From positions 6,144,001 through 6,208,000 of the forward strand of contig OY970194.1 in assembly GCA_963708075.1 (NCBI GenBank): a stretch of 64,000 nt of DNA. The letters run 5' to 3'. The DNA is from Sedimentisphaerales bacterium (GTDB taxonomy: Bacteria; Planctomycetota; Phycisphaerae; Sedimentisphaerales; Anaerobacaceae). The translations under genes were made by a program, and so were the position numbers. This document shows, piece by piece, positions 22,934 to 40,461 of this stretch (within the stretch, counting starts at the first letter, position 1; each line of letters opens with the position of its first letter). Under the pieces are notes generated by a model. The model saw only the letters and a program-made list of their open reading frames with translations, ran no database searches and was not told the origin of the DNA.

Positions 22934-25900
22934 TCACGGCTTGTTCACCGTGGTAGAAGTCTTCACGTTGGCGGCTGGATCGTATGAGAAGCTGCTGTGC
23001 GTAATATTGGTCACGGTGAAGATCATCGAGGTGCTGGTCTTGCTGTTGCTGCTGGCCAGGGTGATCTTCCCGTCGCTGCCGGTCATGCCTATGCTGACGC
23101 CCATTACGGCTCCACTCCACGTGCCGGTCACGGTCGCTCCGGAGACCGGCGCTCCGGACTGATCAACGACAGTCACCGTGACTGTCGCAGCCCATTGACT
23201 GCTGTTGCCTCGGACAGTCGCGGTCCCGTCGAGGCCACCCACGTGCATGGTCGGGACAGCGCCTTGTACGGTGACTGTGACCGTCGCCGTCACTCCGCCG
23301 GCGAGCGTGTAGGAGAAGGAATCACTTCCAGAGTAGCTCGCAGCCGGCGTGTACGTAATCGTCTCATTGGCATTCAATATGGGCGTGCCGTGGCCCGCAG
23401 CGCTCACGGAGACAACATCCAGGGCGCTGTCTACATCAGAGTCGTTGGCCAATACGTTGATGGTGACAGGGGTGTCCTGCGCCGTCGTTGCGATGTCATT
23501 CCCGGCGACCGGCAGGTCGTCCACCGGGTTGATGGTGACCGTGACGGTTGCCGTGTCTGTGCCGCCCCTGCCGTCGCCGGCCGTATACGTGAAGCTGTCC
23601 CCGCCGTTTGCGTTTGCATTCGGAGTGTACGTCACCGTAGTTCCATTGAAAGTCACCGCGCCCTTGGAAGCTGGCGTGACAGAAATGATCGACAGCGTAT
23701 CGCCATCGATGTCGATGTCGTTGCCCAACACCGAAATCACCACAGGCGCATCTTCATTCGTCGTGGCGCTGTCATCAGAGGCGCTGGGTGCGGTGTTGCT
23801 GCCGGCGGCGGCCCCTGTGATCACGATATCGTCGATCATGGCCATGTCGCTGCCGGCACTGCCATTGGTGCGGAAGCGGATCCTGAATGATGACGGCGCA
23901 GGCGATATGTCGTGGGAGAACTGCGCCCAACCCGTGGCGCCCGTCAACGTGTTCAACTGGTGCCACGTACTGCCATCATGAGACCATTCGACGTAGAGGT
24001 ACTCGCTCCCCGCCTTCAGGCCGGCGGTTCTGGCCCAATATGTAAACGTGGCGTCCGTCGCACCGCCGGTGTTGATAGTGGTCGCTACCGAGGCAGCCCT
24101 CTTCAGGAGGGCACCGTAGGTCCCGCTGTGAGCAGACGTGGTCTCCACCGTGGCCTGTCCGCTGGTGACCCATCCCCCGGCGGTGAATCCGCCGCTCTCA
24201 AAACCTTCGCTGAAGAGCGAGGGGACTTCGACCGTGATGACGACCTCGTCGGTATCGGACAAGCCGCTGCCGTCGGTGACCGTCAGAGTCACACTGTAAA
24301 CGCCCGGAGCGAGGAAGGGCACATCCTGCGCCACTGCCGCGTTCGCGATCTCAACTGTGCCAATGGTCCAGAGGTATGAGACAATCGAGGCGGCGGGGGA
24401 GGAGGCTGAGCCATTGAGCGTGACCAACTCCGTGCCGTCCCCATCATTGTCAACCACCGTCTGATCGACGCCGGCATTAGCTACGGGGGGAACATCGCCG
24501 GTGGGGACGAAAGTGACGATCAACTCCGGGCGATAGGCTGCGGTGCCGTACTCGGCCGACGCGATATGCCACCCGTCGGTGCCGTTGGGCAGCACGGCCC
24601 AACCGTTGTTCACCATCGCACCACTGACCCAGCTTTGCACGGTGCCCGTAACGTTCAGGTCCACGTATCCCACGCTGTTCGTGCCGACGCTCGCATCAGC
24701 GATGGACATCGCTTCCACCCCATCGGCCGTGACGCCGTTGGTCAGCGAGTTCCATGTGGACGTGTCGGACCAGGACTGCAGCATAGCGTGAAAATGACCG
24801 CCGTTTCCGGTGTCCAGCGAGTTCAGACGCAGTGTGGCGGAACTGACACCGGCGCCCGGCGGAATCTGATCCGCGGCCTCGCCGATAATGCTGTCGAAGC
24901 GCAGCAGCACCTGAGAGACCCCGCCCAACGAACTTGCAGTATCGACGTTGAGGCTGGATTCGCTGCTGTAGGGGGTGTCCGCCGTGCCGGAAACGATCAT
25001 GGTGTCGCTCGTGCCGGCATAGCCGCTGAGGCCCTGCTGGAAGTGAAGCGTCTGCGGGGCCACGATAAACGTGTCGATCCGAACGGTCAGGATTGTATCG
25101 GGCATCGGGTTGCCGAGGATATCGCTGATGCCGCGCACCGTGATCGCGTACGTGCCGTTTCCGAAGACGGCGCCTGCCGGTTCGAGCGTGATAATACCGG
25201 CGCTCGCACCGTAGGCAAATGTGTAATCGGTGCCTGAAGTCAGGCTCTCTATCGAAACGGTCTCCGGCCCGAGCGGCGGGTCATTATCAATACCTTCAAA
25301 GTCGGTGAGTTGTATCTGGAAGCTGGGCTGGGTCGTGTTGACGGTGACCTGGTCGTCAGCCGGATTGAGATCGGCCGGACCGTTGTCCAGCGGGACCGCC
25401 AGGTCGGCGCGGGGAGGACCATCGGGGCCATCGCTCGTGATGAAAACCGGAGAGGAAAACGCCTCATCCCCATCCGTCTGAGTGACCTTGCAGTAGAGGT
25501 AGTCGCCTTTTTGTGTAAACAGTTCGCAGGTGACGGTGGGGAAAGTGGCGCCCGACAGGTACTCTGTGTGCACAATGTAGCCATTCCGAATGATCTCAAC
25601 CTGGGTGAAGCCTTCCGCGTCGCGGTCTGCGGCTTTCACTACGACCTGATTCGAACCGCCTGCAGCCCCCGAGCCCATCTCGTGGCCGTCGACCTGGAAG
25701 GACAGTTCGAGGTTCTCGTCGAGCGTCGAGTAGAAACACTGGGTGCTCAGGGCATCGTTGATCGCCTGGCGGTTATTGGAACCGGATATGACGGCCAGCC
25801 GGTAGTTGCCCTCACCCCAGGTGCCGTCATGATTGTCCTCTGAGCCGCCGGCGCCAATGAACCAGCCTTCGAGCAGCGCTTCATCGTAATGCCCGGACCG

Positions 25901-26473
25901 GTCTCTGCTGTCGCTCGTATACCCGCTGTTGTAGTAGAGAACGCCATCCCTGTTCCACAATTCCATCCCGACGATGCGGGCCGAGTACGCGCCGGTGAAA
26001 TGCTCGAACTCAGTTCCGGAATCGTAGCGGCCGGGATGATTCAAGAACGCCACGCCGCCGTACGTATTCAGCCAACTCATGAACTCGCTGAATGTATCCG
26101 TCGTGCTGTTGTTGGCTGAAGTGAACGTGACGGGGTTGATGACGGCGACGTGACCGTACGTGCCGGAGGTCCATTCGAATCCATAGAAGGCGCTGAAGAA
26201 ATCCGGATCATCCGCTGCATCCGCAGCCGCTTTCATCCGTGCAAACTCATCTACGGTCAACTGCTCACCGTGATCGGCCAGGCCAAAGAAATCCAGTCCG
26301 GCCGCCCTGGCATCAATGTAGGCCTGCTCGGGTGTACCGACGGCGCCTGAAAGCTCACTATGGTTGTGCAGGTGGCCGAAGTAGATATTCGGAGTGCCGA
26401 TCAGAGACTCCCCTTGTGACACTCCCGATGCGACCGACAGGCAAAGCGCAAGAACGTGAAGCCGACGTCCCAT
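22934..26473 (-). CDS. Secreted PHP-family (CehA/McbA-like) metallohydrolase with DNRLRE-like, PKD and Ig/cadherin-like domains
   Basis: YFGHLHNHS, LADH, NHPG and SEDNH PHP motifs; QVLLRFD...YRPEL DNRLRE-like region; PVANAG PKD; two AxDD/ND-VLxND.D.D Ig repeats. Confidence 0.85.
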   Translation of the reverse strand: MGRRLHVLALCLSVASGVSQGESLIGTPNIYFGHLHNHSELSGAVGTPEQAYIDARAAGLDFFGLADHGEQLTVDEFARMKAAADAADDPDFFSAFYGFEWTSGTYGHVAVINPVTFTSANNSTTDTFSEFMSWLNTYGGVAFLNHPGRYDSGTEFEHFTGAYSARIVGMELWNRDGVLYYNSGYTSDSRDRSGHYDEALLEGWFIGAGGSEDNHDGTWGEGNYRLAVISGSNNRQAINDALSTQCFYSTLDENLELSFQVDGHEMGSGAAGGSNQVVVKAADRDAEGFTQVEIIRNGYIVHTEYLSGATFPTVTCELFTQKGDYLYCKVTQTDGDEAFSSPVFITSDGPDGPPRADLAVPLDNGPADLNPADDQVTVNTTQPSFQIQLTDFEGIDNDPPLGPETVSIESLTSGTDYTFAYGASAGIITLEPAGAVFGNGTYAITVRGISDILGNPMPDTILTVRIDTFIVAPQTLHFQQGLSGYAGTSDTMIVSGTADTPYSSESSLNVDTASSLGGVSQVLLRFDSIIGEAADQIPPGAGVSSATLRLNSLDTGNGGHFHAMLQSWSDTSTWNSLTNGVTADGVEAMSIADASVGTNSVGYVDLNVTGTVQSWVSGAMVNNGWAVLPNGTDGWHIASAEYGTAAYRPELIVTFVPTGDVPPVANAGVDQTVVDNDGDGTELVTLNGSASSPAASIVSYLWTIGTVEIANAAVAQDVPFLAPGVYSVTLTVTDGSGLSDTDEVVITVEVPSLFSEGFESGGFTAGGWVTSGQATVETTSAHSGTYGALLKRAASVATTINTGGATDATFTYWARTAGLKAGSEYLYVEWSHDGSTWHQLNTLTGATGWAQFSHDISPAPSSFRIRFRTNGSAGSDMAMIDDIVITGAAAGSNTAPSASDDSATTNEDAPVVISVLGNDIDIDGDTLSIISVTPASKGAVTFNGTTVTYTPNANANGGDSFTYTAGDGRGGTDTATVTVTINPVDDLPVAGNDIATTAQDTPVTINVLANDSDVDSALDVVSVSAAGHGTPILNANETITYTPAASYSGSDSFSYTLAGGVTATVTVTVQGAVPTMHVGGLDGTATVRGNSSQWAATVTVTVVDQSGAPVSGATVTGTWSGAVMGVSIGMTGSDGKITLASSNSKTSTSMIFTVTNITHSSFSYDPAANVKTSTTVNKP

Positions 26474-26868
26474 GATGACCCCTTTCACCGTTGTGGTGTA
26501 TGCAAACCGCCCGCCCGGGTGACATTTACCGAAACAACACCTCCTCACCAATGGCTGTGAGTCGTATCACCCAATGTCGCTCCTTCTTCGCGGGTCCTTT
26601 CGAAACCCTTACCCTTACAGGGTATTATACCACGACTCTCCCCGTCAACCAGCAATTTTAATGGGAAATGTCCTTCTCTTCCTGCCAACAGTGCGGGTTG
26701 CGGGCTTCTGCCGGTGTGGGGCCGCCTTCCTGGGATTGCATAATCTTATCTACTTGACACCCGGGACTTCAGACTTGAGACTTCCCTGATACTCTTATAG
26801 ATGCCCTGCGAACGCGAGGTGCGTTGTTGCGGGTGACAGTGACGGATGCATTCTGAAGGGGAACAACG

Positions 26869-29442: not shown

Positions 29443-30135
29443 ATGGCGTTTGCATACGAACGGGAAATGGCGGCACCGGCGAGCGCGTGGCTAGCTGCAC
29501 AGGAGCTGATGGTCAAGCGGGAGTTCCCGACGCCGTGGGGCGTCTGTGATCTTGTCGGCTGCTCGCTGAACGAGCTCAAGGTGCGAAAAAGATTGCTCCT
29601 GGGCCAGCGCAAAGCGCTGCGCTCGCAACTGCGGGTGCATGTGCTCTCGCTGATTCCCGACCGCAGCGAGGGACGGTCCATTAGCCTTGATGACCTGCAT
29701 CGCTGCTTCGGCGGCCACCTGGATCGCGGCCGGATCGAGGAGGAAATTGAGAAGCTTATCGAGGATCGCTTCGTGGAGCAGGTCGATGGGCAAACCTACT
29801 CCAGGCATAATCGCTGGGTACCTCTGCACAAGAGACTAATCGCGGTCGAGCTCAAGCTCACCCGCACGGACGATGTCTTCGTCCAGGCCGTCAACAATCT
29901 TGGGTTCGCGGATGAATCGTACGTGGCGCTGCCGGCCGACCGGGCCCGGCGGCTGGCAAAAAGTCAATCGAGAGCGGCATTCACCGCAAAAGGGATTGGC
30001 CTGCTGGCGGTCGGCCCCGATAGCTGCCGGGCGATTCTCAAAGCCAGGCCGATGCGCCGGCACGCGAACAGTCCCATCCAGCACTACTGCGTCGAGCGGT
30101 TCTGGCAACCGTACCTCAGGGGCGGCCGCCCCTGA
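29443..30135 (+). CDS. Predicted PD-(D/E)xK nuclease with inserted winged-helix domain
   Basis: E(7)...REFPTPWGVCDLVG [helical insert] LIAVELKL...QA...FADESYVALP...GIGLL restriction-endonuclease-like pattern. Confidence 0.65.
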   Translation: MAFAYEREMAAPASAWLAAQELMVKREFPTPWGVCDLVGCSLNELKVRKRLLLGQRKALRSQLRVHVLSLIPDRSEGRSISLDDLHRCFGGHLDRGRIEEEIEKLIEDRFVEQVDGQTYSRHNRWVPLHKRLIAVELKLTRTDDVFVQAVNNLGFADESYVALPADRARRLAKSQSRAAFTAKGIGLLAVGPDSCRAILKARPMRRHANSPIQHYCVERFWQPYLRGGRP

Positions 30136-30615
30136 CGAATGCGGAATTCGGAATGCGGAGTGCGGAATAGGACTACTTGCGCCCGTGGGTTCGTGCCGTC
30201 TTGATCGACGTGACGACCATGGCGAGAATCTCGTCGGCCTCACTCATCAGGCTCGACATGCGACTGGCCTTCATGATGCCGGCCTCAACAAGCAGCTCCA
30301 TCCAATAGGCGGACTCATCGCATTCCTCTTCGACAATGCCCATCTTCGCGACGAAATCGGCAGGCGACTTTGGGCGGCAAGCGGCGCGATAGTTCGCACC
30401 AACCGACGTACCGCAACGAAGCAACTGCCCGCCAATGACATCCGCCGCTCGCGATCGAGGTAATGCCTCGACAAGCCGGATGGTTCGTAGAGCAAACGCC
30501 TTTGTACGCTTTCTGAGTTCATTATTGTCCATGCACGGCATGGTGTGCAGGATTCGTCCCTTCCGCAAGTGTTCCCGTATTCCGCACTCCGTATTCCGAG
30601 TTCCGCATTCGTCAG
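30132..30615. mobile_element. Putative mobile four-helix-bundle cassette with 38-bp heptamer-built terminal inverted repeats
   Basis: 30132-30169 and the reverse complement of 30578-30615 match at 36/38 positions: CTGAC(GAATGCG-like)x4 GAATA. Confidence 0.65.
30173..30532 (-). CDS. Four helix bundle protein (23S rRNA IVP / bAvd-like family)
   Basis: LRKRTKAFAL...QLLRCGTSVGANYRAACR.KS.ADF..K..IVEEE.DES.YW.ELL, the family-typical sequence. Confidence 0.92.
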   Translation of the reverse strand: MDNNELRKRTKAFALRTIRLVEALPRSRAADVIGGQLLRCGTSVGANYRAACRPKSPADFVAKMGIVEEECDESAYWMELLVEAGIMKASRMSSLMSEADEILAMVVTSIKTARTHGRK

Positions 30616-31901
30616 AGGCTCATGAGCATGAGTTGCTCGGCAACTTTGCCGGGCTCGCGGACGCTGACGGAGCCGTTGGCCGACAAGACTCCCTTAGGCA
30701 TCTGAGGCAGGCGTCGGCCGAGGACGTATGCCTGCGAGAGGTCCTCGTACAGCCGCAAGGCCCGCTCCGTTGGCAGCGTCATGGCAAGCGTGTCGAGCCA
30801 CTCCTTGTAGAAGGCGGCAAGCTGGTCTTTGGCGACATCCTTGTTGGCCAGCACGGGAAGCTGGTCGAGCAGTTGCCGCAGACTCGGGTACATGCTGTCC
30901 GTGGGGGGCAGGTCGGCCAGGGCCTGTTCGAGCCACTCCCTCATCTCCGGGCTGGCAACGGCCATTCTCCTCAGCGGTGGGATCGCCAGTTTCGGGCGGC
31001 CCTTCTGGATAGGGCTCATTGGCGTGTAATACGTGTAGCTTGTTCCGATGCCCAGCGCAGGATGCTGGCACAGGCCGCGAACCCACAGCACGATGTTCAT
31101 GCCCCAGTACGGCCCCGCAATTACGGGCGCGTCCCTGGGGAGCTGCTCCCTGAGACCTTCGTGAAACGCGAGCAGGGCGGAGTACCGTTCGGTGAAGTTC
31201 TCGCTGAGGTTGTGGTCTGAGAGCGTGATGTCCACGACCCACATGCCATCGGCGCGGGCCAACTGGCAGTCGTGCATGGCCGCCTGTAGCTTGTCGTCAC
31301 GCTGAGGTTTACGGCGGAGAATGGTCGAGCTCGTGAAGACCACCGGAAGAATCAGTTTGACGTCGGGCTTCATCCTGTCCTTCCAGAGCCCCGCGGCCTC
31401 GGCGAGCATGCGGTTGATCTTGTTTCTGCTGCCGCCCGGCGGAATCGGCAACTGCGGCACCGAAATCCAGAGGGGCTTGTGCTCCATGCACGCATCGAGG
31501 TTCTCCGCGACGAACGCATTCAACTCATCCGCGTGCTGTTTGACCCAGTACTTCGGGTCCGTCAAGACTCGATACCCGGTGAATCGGCCGAACTGTCCGT
31601 ACCATCGCTTCCAGAGCTCGTATTTCCAGTCATCCTGCTTTGCCCCTTGCTCATCCAGCGGCCACCGGGCTTCAACGGTTTCCGGCGGCTCCGTGCCGAT
31701 ATCCATGGGCCAGGTGGTCCCGAGGATACAGTCGTAGGCGTCCACCGTCGCGTCCACCCACAGGGGAGTCCCCGGCTCGAGCAGCGGCACTGTCGCGGCG
31801 ATGGTTTCCAGCGGGACCCGCATGCAATGTGCGTCGGCGAAGTACTTCCTGGCGATCGCGCTGTCGCCCTCATTATTGATGAAAGGTATGTAATCCGCCA
31901 T
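30612..31901 (-). CDS. Hypothetical protein, probable TIM-barrel (TGT-like / beta-protein-like)
   Basis: Long ORF with alternating beta/alpha pattern (YIPFI, LWVDA, WISVP, LILPVVF, ADGMWVV, PVIAGPY, ALGIG); the fold assignment is inference. Confidence 0.55.
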   Translation of the reverse strand: MADYIPFINNEGDSAIARKYFADAHCMRVPLETIAATVPLLEPGTPLWVDATVDAYDCILGTTWPMDIGTEPPETVEARWPLDEQGAKQDDWKYELWKRWYGQFGRFTGYRVLTDPKYWVKQHADELNAFVAENLDACMEHKPLWISVPQLPIPPGGSRNKINRMLAEAAGLWKDRMKPDVKLILPVVFTSSTILRRKPQRDDKLQAAMHDCQLARADGMWVVDITLSDHNLSENFTERYSALLAFHEGLREQLPRDAPVIAGPYWGMNIVLWVRGLCQHPALGIGTSYTYYTPMSPIQKGRPKLAIPPLRRMAVASPEMREWLEQALADLPPTDSMYPSLRQLLDQLPVLANKDVAKDQLAAFYKEWLDTLAMTLPTERALRLYEDLSQAYVLGRRLPQMPKGVLSANGSVSVREPGKVAEQLMLMSL

Positions 31902-32018: not shown

Positions 32019-32723
32019 CTACGCGCCGCTCGCCTGTGCGTCGATGCACGACGGACGACCGGTTGACAACCCGACGGCCAGACTGACGCCGAACATCAGA
32101 AGATCCCAGGCCAAGGAGTCATTGCTCAACATGGAATGCCAGGTCGGACCGTAGTTTGGCGCCAGGAACCATGCCAGAAAGCTCAATGCCGACAGGAGGA
32201 TCAGTGGCACGGATCCGGTACGTCGCCAATGCGGCTTGGCCAGCGCGCCGATCAGCACGACCACCCACAGAATGACGCAGATTTGAAGAACGCCTCTGCG
32301 AACGAATTCGCTGAGCAGAAACTCGCGGGATTCCGGCTCGACGGGGATCTCTGTGCTATCAAGACCGTTGAATCCTGTAAGGATGTCATCACTAAACGTG
32401 AGGGCGAACGCGTACCCGCTGGCCGGATGGACATAGCGATACGTTCTTGTCGATGGCTGTGTATCCGAGGTGCTGTCAATCTCAGACAGGCTGCCGAATT
32501 GCCTTCTAAACTCATCGATGGAGACTCTCTGGAACAACGCGATCCGGACAAGGTCATCCGCCTCTCGGCCAAGCGCATCAGTGGCCTTGATCCGTGCGTC
32601 TCGCTCTCGGAATCGGCTATGTCTCAATTCGTTCAGGCGGGTCTTATAGGCGCCGACCATGACCGGGAGTGTTGCTGTCGCTACTACCAGGATTGTCAGC
32701 ACAAATGTATTTTGATTTCGCAT
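32019..32723 (-). CDS. Hypothetical membrane protein (1 N-terminal and 3 C-terminal TM helices)
   Basis: Hydrophobic segments; AAGGAGAG RBS upstream. Confidence 0.65.
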   Translation of the reverse strand: MRNQNTFVLTILVVATATLPVMVGAYKTRLNELRHSRFRERDARIKATDALGREADDLVRIALFQRVSIDEFRRQFGSLSEIDSTSDTQPSTRTYRYVHPASGYAFALTFSDDILTGFNGLDSTEIPVEPESREFLLSEFVRRGVLQICVILWVVVLIGALAKPHWRRTGSVPLILLSALSFLAWFLAPNYGPTWHSMLSNDSLAWDLLMFGVSLAVGLSTGRPSCIDAQASGA

Positions 32724-36784: not shown

Positions 36785-37245
36785 CAGGGGAGTGAGCCCT
36801 CTTGCCATGTCTCTTGCCTGGCTGGCTGCGCTCGACGTCACAGAGCCTCTGCTCGGATCGCCGGCAGACACAATAGCGCCCCATCCCATCCCCAGTCCTG
36901 AATGCTGAAGATTTCTATTGGCGTCGTTGCGAGCACCTTTGTAGGATACCGTCCGACGAGGTTGACTACGAACGCTTACAGAGAGGCATGCAATCTTGAT
37001 GCACATCATGATGGTTTCGCTGTAGGTTCGCGACGGTCGGGCCAGGCCCGACCCCGGATCGGTCCACTATCTGAAAGAGGCGTGTTGTGGATGGCGACGG
37101 AGGCTCGAACGCTATCAGACTGACGGTGCTCTCGCCTGAGCCACCGAGCCGATCGTCGCCGGATGCGGGCGACATCGACCCGGGCGTGCTTACTCCCTGT
37201 CAGCCGGAGAGTCTCCGGTCGCTTGGAGGTCTGTTCAGAGAAGCA

Positions 37246-40200
37246 ATGATGAAGACTCAACGCATGTCTTCTGTTCTCATCGCTATCTGGCTTGGCGTGT
37301 CCGCTATCGCCCAGGGAACGCCCAGCGTGAGTTCCGTTGCCCCCAGCTCCGGCGTGCAGGGGAAAGGCTATACGGTCGTGCTCACCGGGTCCGGGTTTAC
37401 GGGCACCACCATCGTGAGCTTCGGGCCGGGTATCGCAGTCGATGACTTCACCGTGGACAGCGACACGCGGATCACGGCGCAGATGACCATAGCTCAGTCG
37501 GCAGCGACGGGATGGCGGACCGTGACGGTGACGACTGGGGCGGGCCCTGGCAAGCGGTCGAACGGCTTCCGGGTGGACTCCGCGGCACCTCAGATAAGCT
37601 CTGTAATGCCCTCCTCCGGCGTGCAGGCCGAAAGCTGTACGGTCGTACTCACCGGGTCCAATTTCACCGGTGCCACGACGGTCAGCTTCGGGGACGGGAT
37701 CACCGTCAACGACTCTACGGTGGACAACGATACGCAAATCACGCTACAGATAACCATAGGACAGGCGGCGGAGACGGGCTGGCGGACTGTGACAGTAGCG
37801 ACCCCGTCGTTTACCGGCAAGCGGTCGAATGGCTTCCGGGTGGACTCCGGGGCGCCTTTGATAAGCTCCATCGAACCCTCCTTTGGCGAGCAGGCGGAAA
37901 ACTACACAGTGTTGCTCACTGGGTCCAAGTTCACAGGCGCTACAAGCGTGAGCTTCGGGGCGGGAATCACGGTCGATGACTTCACGGTGGACAACGATAC
38001 ACAGATCACGGTACAGGTGACTGTAGGGCAGGCGGCGGCGACAGGCTGGCGAACTGTGACGGTGACGACCTCGCTGTTTACCGGCACGCGGTCGAATGGC
38101 TTTCGCGTGGACTCCGCGGCGCCTTTGATAAGCTCTGTCGATCCCTCCTTTGGCGAGCAGGCGGAAAACTACACAGTGTTGCTCACTGGGTCCAAGTTCA
38201 CAGGTGCTACAAGCGTGAGCTTTGGGGCGGGAATCACGGTCGACGACTTCACGGTGGACAGCGATACACAGATCACGGTACAGGTGACTGTAGGGCAGGC
38301 GGCGGCGACAGGCTGGCGAACTGTGACGGTGACGACCCCGCTGTTTACCGGCACGCGGTCGAACGGCTTTCGCGTGGACTCCGGGGCGCCTCTGATAAGC
38401 TCGGTCGAGCCCTCCTTTGGCGAGCAGGGGGAAAGTTATACGATCTTGCTTGCGGGGTCCAATTTCACAGACGCTGTGAGCGTGACCTTTGGAACCGGCA
38501 TCGACGTCAGCAGCGTCACAGTGAATAGCGATGCGCAGATCACGGTGCAGATAGTCGTAGGGCAGGTGGCGGCGACGGGCTGGCGAACTGTGACGGTGAT
38601 GACTCCCTTGTTCAGCGGCGCGCGATCCAACGGCTTTCGGGTGGACCCCGGCAGTGTCCCTGTTTCTCCTCCGACCGTGTCGACCAGTCCTGCCACCGGC
38701 GTTGAGGACGCCGGTGCGACGCTAAATGGCCAACTCAATGCCGATGGCGGCCAGGCCTGTGAGTACCGGTTCAGGTACAGAAAGTCCGGCGGCGCCTATA
38801 GTTACACCTCGTGGGCGGGATCGGTCACGAGCGGGCAATCCTTCAGCGAAACGCTCAACAGTCTGGAGGCCGGGGCTGCGTACTTCTTTGCCGCCCAGGC
38901 GAGGAATTCGGCCGGAGAGGGCGACTGGGGCGCCGAACTGAGCTTCACTACCGCTGCTCCACCTGTCAAGGCTCCCACTGTGACCACAACAGAGGCCGTG
39001 AATGTCGATTCGACCTCGGCGACGCTATCCGGTTGTGTTGATAGCGACGGTGGTGAGGCCTGCGGGTATCGATTCTCCTACTATCCCCTGCACCTTGGCC
39101 CTGGCGCACAGATGGAAACGGACTGGGAATGCTGTGCCGGCACGGGCCAGGCCTTCACCTGCACAGTCACCGGCTTGACTCCCGCCACACAGTACTGCTT
39201 CGTCGCTGAAGCCAGGAACTCCGCCGGTGCTGCAACGGGCGGACGAGTGAGTTTCACCACGATCAGGGCGCCGGCACTGACCATTTCCTCCACAGCGGGC
39301 GGGGCAGTCGTCGAACCCGGCGAAGGGGTATTCTCATATGCGGGGATAGCTGTGGTCGAGGTGGAAGCGGTGCCGGGCCCTCACTGCAGATTTCAGGGCT
39401 GGACCGGATCGGCTGTGGAGGCAGGCAAGACAGACAACCCGGATGCGGCGACGAACATGGTGACGGTGGATGACTCCTACGCGATCAGGGCGCATTTCGT
39501 CAGCCTGCTCGATGTGATCCACGTGGATGAAGATGCCCGAGACGATCCGGGGCCGAGCGATCCGACTATCAGCGATCCGAACGAGGACGGCACCGAGCAG
39601 CACCCGTTCGATTCAGTCCAGGAGGCAATCGAGGTGGCACGTGACACGGTGCGGGTCCTGGTGCACGAGGGGGTCTATCGGGAAAACGTGGACCTGCTGG
39701 GCAGGAGGATTACGGTCGAGGGCTTATGGCTGACGGACCCGAATGTGCTCACAATGCCGGTGATCGAAGGTGTGGGCGGCGGGCCTGTGCTTCGATTTGC
39801 CAAGGGTGAGAACCTCAACTGTCAATTGGCAGGTCTGGTCATCACGAGTGCCCCGCACATCCGGACTGCGGCGATCGAATGCAAGGGGACCAGTCCCATG
39901 ATCGCACACTGCATTGTCGCCGGCCACCGGGCCGCCGCCGACGGCGGAGCCGCGATGGTGTTTGAGGGCTGTAGCGGCGTCCTGGTCAATTGCACGATCA
40001 CAGGAAATGGGGCTGACGCGGGCGGGGCGGTGATCCGCTGTACCGGGAGCTCCGGCCTGACATTGATCAACTCCATTCTATGGGGCAACACCGGGCCAGT
40101 CCTGCAGGCAAGGGACGGCAAGATGCCCCTCATATCTTACTGCGATCTGCAGGAGGCGGTGGCCGGGATCGGGAACATCAGCGTCAATCCGCTTTTCGCC

Positions 40201-40461
40201 GATGCCGGCGGTTGGGACAGCAAGGGCACTCCTGCCAACGCCGATGACGACGTGTGGATTATGGGCGACTACCATCTGATGACCAGGCGGGGCCGGTTCC
40301 GGCCGGAGTACGGGGTCTGGATCCTCGATGAGGCGGGCAGCCCGTGCATTGATGCGGGCGATCCGAGCTACCCCTGGCTCGCGGAGCCTTGGCCCAACGG
40401 CGAACGAGTCAATATGGGCGCTTATGGCGGGACCTGGCAGGCGAGTTCCTCCAGCCAGTAA
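37246..40461 (+). CDS. Large secreted protein: 5x IPT/TIG-like repeats, 2x FN3-like, B-repeat-like and beta-helix domains
   Basis: Signal peptide; 89-aa repeats ending RSNGFRVD; Y(F/C)FxAxARNSAG FN3-like motifs; HPFDSVQEAI; GDYHL...SPCIDAGDP...NMGAYGGT. Confidence 0.85.
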   Translation: MMKTQRMSSVLIAIWLGVSAIAQGTPSVSSVAPSSGVQGKGYTVVLTGSGFTGTTIVSFGPGIAVDDFTVDSDTRITAQMTIAQSAATGWRTVTVTTGAGPGKRSNGFRVDSAAPQISSVMPSSGVQAESCTVVLTGSNFTGATTVSFGDGITVNDSTVDNDTQITLQITIGQAAETGWRTVTVATPSFTGKRSNGFRVDSGAPLISSIEPSFGEQAENYTVLLTGSKFTGATSVSFGAGITVDDFTVDNDTQITVQVTVGQAAATGWRTVTVTTSLFTGTRSNGFRVDSAAPLISSVDPSFGEQAENYTVLLTGSKFTGATSVSFGAGITVDDFTVDSDTQITVQVTVGQAAATGWRTVTVTTPLFTGTRSNGFRVDSGAPLISSVEPSFGEQGESYTILLAGSNFTDAVSVTFGTGIDVSSVTVNSDAQITVQIVVGQVAATGWRTVTVMTPLFSGARSNGFRVDPGSVPVSPPTVSTSPATGVEDAGATLNGQLNADGGQACEYRFRYRKSGGAYSYTSWAGSVTSGQSFSETLNSLEAGAAYFFAAQARNSAGEGDWGAELSFTTAAPPVKAPTVTTTEAVNVDSTSATLSGCVDSDGGEACGYRFSYYPLHLGPGAQMETDWECCAGTGQAFTCTVTGLTPATQYCFVAEARNSAGAATGGRVSFTTIRAPALTISSTAGGAVVEPGEGVFSYAGIAVVEVEAVPGPHCRFQGWTGSAVEAGKTDNPDAATNMVTVDDSYAIRAHFVSLLDVIHVDEDARDDPGPSDPTISDPNEDGTEQHPFDSVQEAIEVARDTVRVLVHEGVYRENVDLLGRRITVEGLWLTDPNVLTMPVIEGVGGGPVLRFAKGENLNCQLAGLVITSAPHIRTAAIECKGTSPMIAHCIVAGHRAAADGGAAMVFEGCSGVLVNCTITGNGADAGGAVIRCTGSSGLTLINSILWGNTGPVLQARDGKMPLISYCDLQEAVAGIGNISVNPLFADAGGWDSKGTPANADDDVWIMGDYHLMTRRGRFRPEYGVWILDEAGSPCIDAGDPSYPWLAEPWPNGERVNMGAYGGTWQASSSSQ
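37321..38650 (+). repeat. Five intragenic tandem repeats of about 267 bp
   Basis: Units 3 and 4 (about 37853-38119 and 38120-38386) are nearly identical at DNA level. Confidence 0.9.

Follow-up and report, generated by a model that had tools for sequence, protein, structure and literature searches.

The described systems closest to the locus reported here are gop-beta-cII of P4 and the wider class built on P4 Beta ('TIM-B'). The gop-beta-cII genes give protection from lambda and P1, and gop becomes toxic when beta is missing (as stated in passages of PMC9122126); this toxicity is triggered by a phage accessory gene (as stated in passages of bioRxiv 10.1101/2023.04.06.535777). Section 33 of a preprint unifies P4 Beta with the deazaguanine transglycosylase fold and describes a layout of co-directional effector and TIM-B genes with a convergent, overlapping restriction endonuclease (REase), TIM-B being proposed as a negative regulator of varied effectors, including a RES-family ADP-ribosyltransferase (ART) (bioRxiv 10.64898/2026.10.19.760177). 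Frg is described, in a part of PMC9503650, as an antiviral effector of the ART superfamily that may be an NADase. The present analysis concerned a 64,000-nucleotide (nt) stretch from a Sedimentisphaerales bacterium (assembly GCA_963708075.1, contig OY970194.1, positions 6,144,001 to 6,208,000; hereafter the window), in which two convergent genes encode a 230-amino-acid (aa) nuclease and a 429-aa barrel protein. An earlier reading of the letters alone (the sequence-only reading) had proposed them as a two-gene defence or conflict system. Both open reading frames were present and are real genes (Table 1), and the barrel start at 31901 coincided with the family consensus M1.

Word-indexed searches recovered 311 homologues of the nuclease and 145 of the barrel, and a barrel profile recovered 319 cluster representatives at E ≤0.001. 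Genomic context was surveyed in 50 genome loci found through the barrel and two viral loci found through the nuclease. The nuclease lay tail-to-tail with the barrel in 49 of the 50 genome loci, the 50th ending at a contig end, and the barrel was present in both viral loci. Barrel and nuclease genes overlapped at their 3' ends by 14 nt in 27 of 58 rows and by 20 nt in 16. Clustering of the neighbouring genes uncovered a third member immediately upstream of the barrel in 43 of the 50 loci; it encodes an FRG-domain protein (Pfam FRG confirmed in 20 of 20 tested). The gap between FRG and barrel genes ranged from -4 to +17 nt (39 rows measured), and FRG was the most conserved of the three genes (mean identity 50% versus 43%). 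Among the other loci, L008 carried an FRG fragment at a contig edge and is wrongly labelled FRG-less in the quick tree, while L046 was unassessable for FRG; four of the remaining five FRG-less loci had a truncated or frameshifted core gene. A transposase and a weak FRG remnant occupied the FRG position in L037. The full module is an FRG gene, a co-directional gene for a barrel of the tRNA-guanine-transglycosylase (TGT) fold, and a convergent gene for a REase with a winged helix-turn-helix (wHTH). The sequence-only reading is thus supported in its conserved pairing and in the convergent orientation that it had noted, and its two-gene limit has to be widened, since in this family a third gene, for an FRG effector, usually completes the module.

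The records were labelled Planctomycetota, Acidobacteriota, Binatota, Pseudomonadota, Thermodesulfobacteriota, Myxococcota, Ignavibacteriota and Verrucomicrobiae. This adds an unnamed candidate defence module, its loci labelled with about eight phyla, in which two of three genes are invisible to Pfam, NCBIfam and PADLOC, and it places FRG, a predicted and little-characterised NAD-using effector, in an operon. From the nuclease side the pairing was not absolute. Four close matches were found among 401 genomes of the phylum: G000 and G409 had the barrel (G409 showing a gap of ~1 kb and lacking an FRG match), in G411 the nuclease stood by itself in a prophage-like region, and a contig end interrupted G282.

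P4 itself and plasmid beta/sce7726 loci showed the layout of the family, namely an effector, a TGT-related barrel and a convergent, 3'-overlapping PD-(D/E)xK nuclease. This likeness to gop-beta-cII/TIM-B holds for the family; the window itself has no FRG and its overlap is interrupted. Effector-less pairs like the window pair also occur in the described class (L128, L130), and a RES-family ART is a listed TIM-B effector where the present family has FRG, itself of ART fold. PD-lambda-2 was counted within TIM-B by the PADLOC match of Beta. The module is like the gop-beta-cII class by layout and fold, and outside class membership by sequence. The analogy with beta/sce7726 pairs drawn earlier was supported, and the statement that the pair matches no named system held for sequence and failed for layout. 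On the best reading, which is quite possibly right, the pair forms the core of an abortive-infection or toxin-antitoxin module of gop-beta-cII-like (TIM-B) type, in which a ligand-binding barrel gates the effectors. FRG would be the NAD+-consuming effector. The retained pocket of the barrel, lacking a transglycosylation nucleophile, would bind a purine, a ligand of the ADP-ribose type or a modified base, and the barrel would keep the effector or effectors off until disturbed by infection. The nuclease on the opposite strand may be a second effector or a regulator, and overlapping antisense transcription may serve as a switch. After loss of FRG, barrel and nuclease could persist as a self-sufficient two-gene core, like the gop-less beta/sce7726 pairs.

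Sequence comparisons did not connect the two proteins to that class. Pfam, NCBIfam and PADLOC scans of the window nuclease and barrel gave no credible family; member-wise Pfam and NCBIfam scans were blank for both alignments, and PADLOC named no family for the nuclease alignment. PDB sequence searches with both proteins returned nothing, and no Atlas neighbour of either was named. Pfam Beta (PF14350) matched 0 of 109 barrel members at E 0.05 and nothing in genome G000, and PADLOC, with its beta and PD-Lambda-2_C models, recovered P4 beta as a positive control and not the window barrel. NF033832 (cII/sce7726) matched 0 of 110 nuclease members and not the window nuclease, the control G147 scoring 181 bits. 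The sce7725 hidden Markov model (NF033831) gave no match in searches that had no positive control. The hhalign probability was 0.3% for barrel against Beta and 0.5% for nuclease against cII/sce7726, with and without the winged helix. Profile comparisons to TGT, Beta and sce7726 were not significant; Beta against TGT was itself not significant, so profile comparison cannot see such links. A viral fold search with the barrel gave weak TGT-like matches and no row named Beta, and a relationship to Beta stays possible. Structural differences were also evident: the nuclease has an internal winged helix rather than the C-terminal HeH of cII/sce7726, and the strand-8 Asp kept by Beta is missing from the barrel. 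The effector differs from those listed for TIM-B, FRG occurring 0 times in the text of the preprint (bioRxiv 10.64898/2026.10.19.760177; text, as distinct from figures and supplement). The P4 layout recurs here with unrelated-looking protein families.

Other comparisons gave partial likenesses. The family FRG matched PADLOC PDC-S15, a single-gene FRG candidate (E to 1e-49), but differs from it in standing in an operon with the barrel, and it is absent from the window. The BRC system with a TGT, as it appears in passages of PMC12839542, differs from the present module. No description of a module of FRG, TGT fold and REase was found in a full-text literature search, most subscription papers lying outside its coverage.

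The nuclease carried the motif residues E6, E27, D36, E136-L-K138, Q148-A149 and F155-A-D-E-S-Y-V. In 110 aligned sequences D36, E136, K138 and Q148 were invariant and E6 was at least 90% conserved. The structure model (predicted local distance difference test, pLDDT, 91.6) indicates that the E, D, (D/E)xK catalytic set sits on a REase fold, and fold searches matched residues ~58-123 to winged-helix domains. The restriction-endonuclease-like pattern split by a helical insert, as first described, was borne out, the insert being this winged helix. The best fold match was SPO1766 (3dnx; Z 13.4, root-mean-square deviation, rmsd, 3.7, 131 aligned), which we take to be MmcB/DUF1052; it has the same core fold and E..D..ExK..Q motif, whereas the present nuclease has the winged-helix insertion, no Pfam match and a coupled barrel. 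In the Atlas, MmcB-like proteins were only a weak neighbour. Weak PDC-M05A matches occurred in 17 of the 110 members (best E 7.5e-4), and no longer, fused nuclease forms were found, which is weak evidence.

MmcB has an SOS role, and the SPO1766 match raises the alternative of a DNA-repair or damage-tolerance pair, in which a base-lesion binder would work with an MmcB-like nuclease. The window genes are also old at their present site by their level of amelioration. Patchy distribution, FRG coupling, the P4-like layout and the lack of consistent repair neighbours make this highly improbable.

The barrel was modelled as a (beta/alpha)8 barrel (pLDDT 94.6), in agreement with the beta/alpha alternation noted from the sequence. 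All 50 of the 50 Foldseek matches listed were TGTs. In a wide fold search the barrel aligned with archaeosine TGT 1iq8 at Z 18.5 (rmsd 3.6, 280 aligned), bacterial TGT at 18.2, non-catalytic QTRT2 at 16.2 (the third match), DpdA at 14.4 and Cap10 at 12.7; DpdA was tied with generic aldolase-type barrels, which reached 14.3. The models thus identify the protein as a TGT fold of the deazaguanine-transglycosylase type, as had been guessed earlier. A known metabolic enzyme was rejected as its identity, the TGT-family matches (Z 16-18.5) exceeding the aldolase-type barrels (≤14.3).

The active site was mapped by strand order, with no residue superposition. D50 ends strand 3 (E47-50) and is equivalent to the TGT acid/base Asp, kept in 233 of 234 homologues. 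In DpdA the acid/base is Asp95 and the nucleophile Asp256 (as given in part of PMC10164549), and the Cap10 nucleophile is D248 (as given in part of bioRxiv 10.1101/2025.04.06.647259). No counterpart of the strand-8 nucleophile was found: by the same mapping, D or E occurred at 281-292 in 0 of 234 barrel homologues and at 280 in 2%. As controls, the nucleophile motif was present in 27 of 29 TGTs, and 11 of 14 Beta proteins carried a motif of the GD[YHF] type. The CxCxxC zinc motif was found in 0 of 234. By strand-order mapping, the barrel appears to keep the TGT acid/base Asp without the transglycosylation nucleophile. TGT, DpdA of the Dpd system and Cap10 of type IV cyclic-oligonucleotide-based antiphage signalling (CBASS) share fold, strand order and the strand-3 Asp with the barrel, but at ~10% identity it has no DSGG, FDCV nucleophile or zinc site, and the family has no Que or Dpd partner genes among its nearest neighbours. 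Cap10 likewise has no CxCxxC..H zinc site in the part of its source covered. A role as modifier in the DpdA sense, raised in the sequence-only reading, is doubtful because the nucleophile Asp was not found. Invariant or nearly invariant residues were R28, W48, D50, D54, P149-Q150, N163, D224/D229, R239, G263-P-Y-W266, R312 and R380, and H247 was strongly conserved too; given the conservation of D54, D224, D229, R28, Q150, N163, R239 and H247, a different chemistry is conceivable.

In one alternative, modification-dependent restriction, a nucleophile-less TGT fold would read modified guanines, such as phage 7-deazaguanines, and recruit or activate the REase-wHTH, with FRG a dispensable backup. 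In agreement with this, 233 of 234 homologues have the acid/base equivalent and none of the 234 has the nucleophile, catalytically dead TGT folds exist (QTRT2), and the retained unit is the barrel-nuclease pair rather than FRG. No queuosine-pathway or dpdB/dpdC-like gene recurred in neighbour clustering or among the 133 nearest neighbours, and the module accordingly produces no mark itself. The explanation is nevertheless somewhat unlikely: a stoichiometric reader-cutter complex would not usually be encoded by convergent genes that are not co-transcribed, P149-Q150 apparently stands in place of the second base-reading Asp on strand 4, and no barrel-nuclease fusion was found (weak evidence). 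Prediction of a barrel-nuclease complex scored 0.04, which weighs neither for nor against binding.

Another alternative is an ADP-ribose mark-and-erase cycle, comparable to DarTG, in which FRG would ADP-ribosylate a DNA or RNA base, the barrel would hydrolyse or excise that base through D50/D54/D224/D229 and the nuclease would cut marked or abasic DNA. The tight coupling of FRG, the most conserved of the three, to the barrel gene fits such a cycle, and the four near-invariant carboxylates with R28, R239 and H247 resemble an active site. It is judged rather unlikely, as the barrel is kept after FRG loss and no FRG activity on nucleic acid was found in the literature searched.

Among 133 nearest-neighbour proteins of the 52 loci (45 selected proteins rescanned), restriction-modification, BREX (bacteriophage exclusion), Avs2, Hma or HEPN genes were nearest neighbours in 11 loci and toxin-antitoxin genes in 7 more. 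Integrases or transposases stood near several loci. These mobile elements, with sporadic occurrence across phyla, scattered insertion sites and the persistence of the pair, would also suit a selfish addiction pair that plays no part against phages, with the nuclease as a stable toxin and the barrel or an overlap antisense RNA its antidote. Long residence at one chromosomal site (the mlaE side is common to several loci and dS within the clade reaches 0.69) and the lack of any barrel among 72,556 plasmids searched render this distinctly unlikely.

In the window there was no FRG near the pair. Close metagenomic relatives (79-97% identity) were likewise without FRG, although L097 has just 188 nt upstream. 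In the quick tree the window and its relatives formed an eight-row clade with support of 100, nested among FRG-bearing loci, so FRG was lost; because of this loss, FRG went unseen in the sequence-only reading. G000 has three stand-alone FRG genes at other sites; as they are distant (E 1e-31 to 1e-18) and unlinked, none was accepted as the displaced partner. Relative to the window, the ratio of nonsynonymous to synonymous substitution rates (dN/dS) was 0.08-0.20 for the barrel (six comparisons, dS 0.38-0.69) and 0.20-0.31 for the nuclease (three comparisons, the out-of-frame L097 row excluded); two control genes in the flanks gave 0.17 and 0.19. The FRG-less pair is under purifying selection and undecayed. 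Changes at six positions of the barrel in the FRG-less clade were rejected as a lost FRG interface, as they lie within the range of the FRG-bearing sisters. Together with the missing nucleophile, the FRG-less lineage bears on whether the TGT fold is an antitoxin enzyme, as proposed for TIM-B, or a ligand reader working with the nuclease.

The nuclease profile matched two of 24 genomes of the genus, and the flanking interval was not of constant length across the genus. The mlaE side of the site was common to the window, L092, L093, L094 and L096. In the window, L093 and L100, though not in L092, L094 and L096, the slot of FRG was filled by an orphan membrane gene, which was not found in 60 related genomes searched. 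It could, on thin evidence, be a replacement membrane effector, as predicted for Gop.

Nuclease and barrel genes are not adjacent in the window because another gene, encoding a four-helix-bundle protein (TIGR02436, E 1e-24) and passed over in the sequence-only reading, lies between them. It is flanked by 42-nt inverted repeats that cover both stop codons. The junction is empty and overlapping in L093, L094, L097 and L098; the gene has the window orientation in L095, is inverted in L092, and L109 keeps one arm only. In run X1, one contig connects 30115 with 30612, skipping 496 nt. The insert is a secondary element outside the module. Its two arms pair as a long stem (z -5.6), and it may be an RNA-processing site on both strands. 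There were 46 similar heptamer arrays genome-wide in G000, and a literature search on the insert gave no match. Other four-helix-bundle genes of G000 were flanked by different short repeats.

Conserved pairing, FRG coupling, the P4 layout, patchy occurrence, defence neighbours and low dN/dS were counted in favour of a gop-beta-cII-like module gated by the barrel. Several observations weigh against it. Neither protein is detectably similar to Beta_protein (PF14350) or cII/sce7726, so the common layout is possibly convergent. The barrel showed 7-8 deviations at conserved columns without FRG and 7-9 in FRG-bearing sisters, and equal conservation would not be predicted for a pure anti-FRG antitoxin. 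The insert abolishes the 3' overlap without visible decay of the pair. The window cassette is host-like in GC and in GC at third codon positions (GC3) and lies outside any defence island, housekeeping genes surround most loci, and the neighbour counts were made without a background control; the suggested PADLOC check gave no match to the pair, with defence neighbours in the 11 loci above. A close nuclease homologue (L165:4066-4773, E 1e-63) stands without a barrel in a prophage-like region, between genes that by their motifs are probably for a DNA methylase and an SNF2-like helicase.

Weak nuclease matches led to sister modules of a nuclease, a Ser/Thr kinase and a 380-450-aa protein in 11 loci, with further arrangements listed in Table 1. 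Their hosts were planctomycetes, Bacillus, Kocuria and a haloarchaeal plasmid. The sister protein (~400 aa; motif ILSP..FDPQ.Y.P) aligns co-linearly, motif for motif, with the present barrel; the barrel scored 26.3 against the kinase-associated family (E 0.012, 322 columns), with one of 25 block shuffles equally high. From this alignment it is probably a TGT-like barrel, as a lead. PADLOC gave no match for the sister barrel-like and nuclease genes scanned, and the sister modules are possibly another unnamed defence system. A broad, hitherto unrecognised class may join the two, with a nucleophile-less TGT-fold reader, an MmcB-like nuclease and a swappable third part (FRG or Ser/Thr kinase), the barrel sensing modified guanine in phage DNA (7-deazaguanine or ADP-ribosyl-guanine) and licensing the nuclease. 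This generalisation is doubtful; if true, it would be modification-dependent restriction that relies on the same fold with which phages install such modifications.

Table 1. Features of the window, stand-alone FRG genes of G000 and sister modules.
Feature	Position	Strand
PD-(D/E)xK nuclease, MmcB/SPO1766-like core with inserted winged helix (~aa 58-123)	29443..30135	+
Nuclease catalytic candidates	E6 (29458), D36 (29548), E136 (29848), K138 (29854), Q148 (29884)	+
Predicted TGT-fold (beta/alpha)8 barrel, hairpin and helical C-terminal extension	30612..31901	-
Four-helix-bundle gene (TIGR02436 / PF05635), secondary insertion outside conserved module	30173..30532	-
Left arm, 42-nt inverted repeat of GCGGAAT-like heptamers; holds nuclease stop codon	30128..30169	
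Right arm, 42-nt inverted repeat; holds barrel stop codon	30578..30619	
Short palindrome at nuclease 3' end, duplicating insertion target; relatives show empty site	30116..30135	
Orphan membrane protein with three or more hydrophobic segments (GC3 0.66), in usual FRG slot; module link uncertain	32019..32723	-
Stand-alone FRG-domain genes in G000	C1 4483869-4484762, 5850820-5851794, 4461909-4462847	
Sister modules, co-directional	L123, L124, L151-L159	
Kinase fusion convergent to nuclease	L122:3911-6880	
Kinase, then barrel-like gene, convergent to nuclease	L163:3469-6361	
Nuclease and barrel-like gene, no kinase	L160:3493-5276, L161, L162	

The surroundings of the pair were described in the sequence-only reading as sugar-metabolism genes to which it is unrelated. 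The flanks are sugar-metabolism only in part: they hold what we take, from motifs, to be a sugar-phosphate-isomerase-like gene and mlaE/ABC genes, together with a prepilin N-methyl gene and the orphan membrane gene. Further out, 22934-26551 (-) and 37087-40461 (+) encode large secreted multi-repeat proteins of ~1200 and ~1120 aa, with immunoglobulin-like repeats by eye. In the planctomycete loci L001, L003 and L021, a common gene block lies downstream of the nuclease, one gene having a laminin-G domain and most being unnamed. The block in L021 adjoins a D5-type primase, and the shared block is probably one mobile element family.

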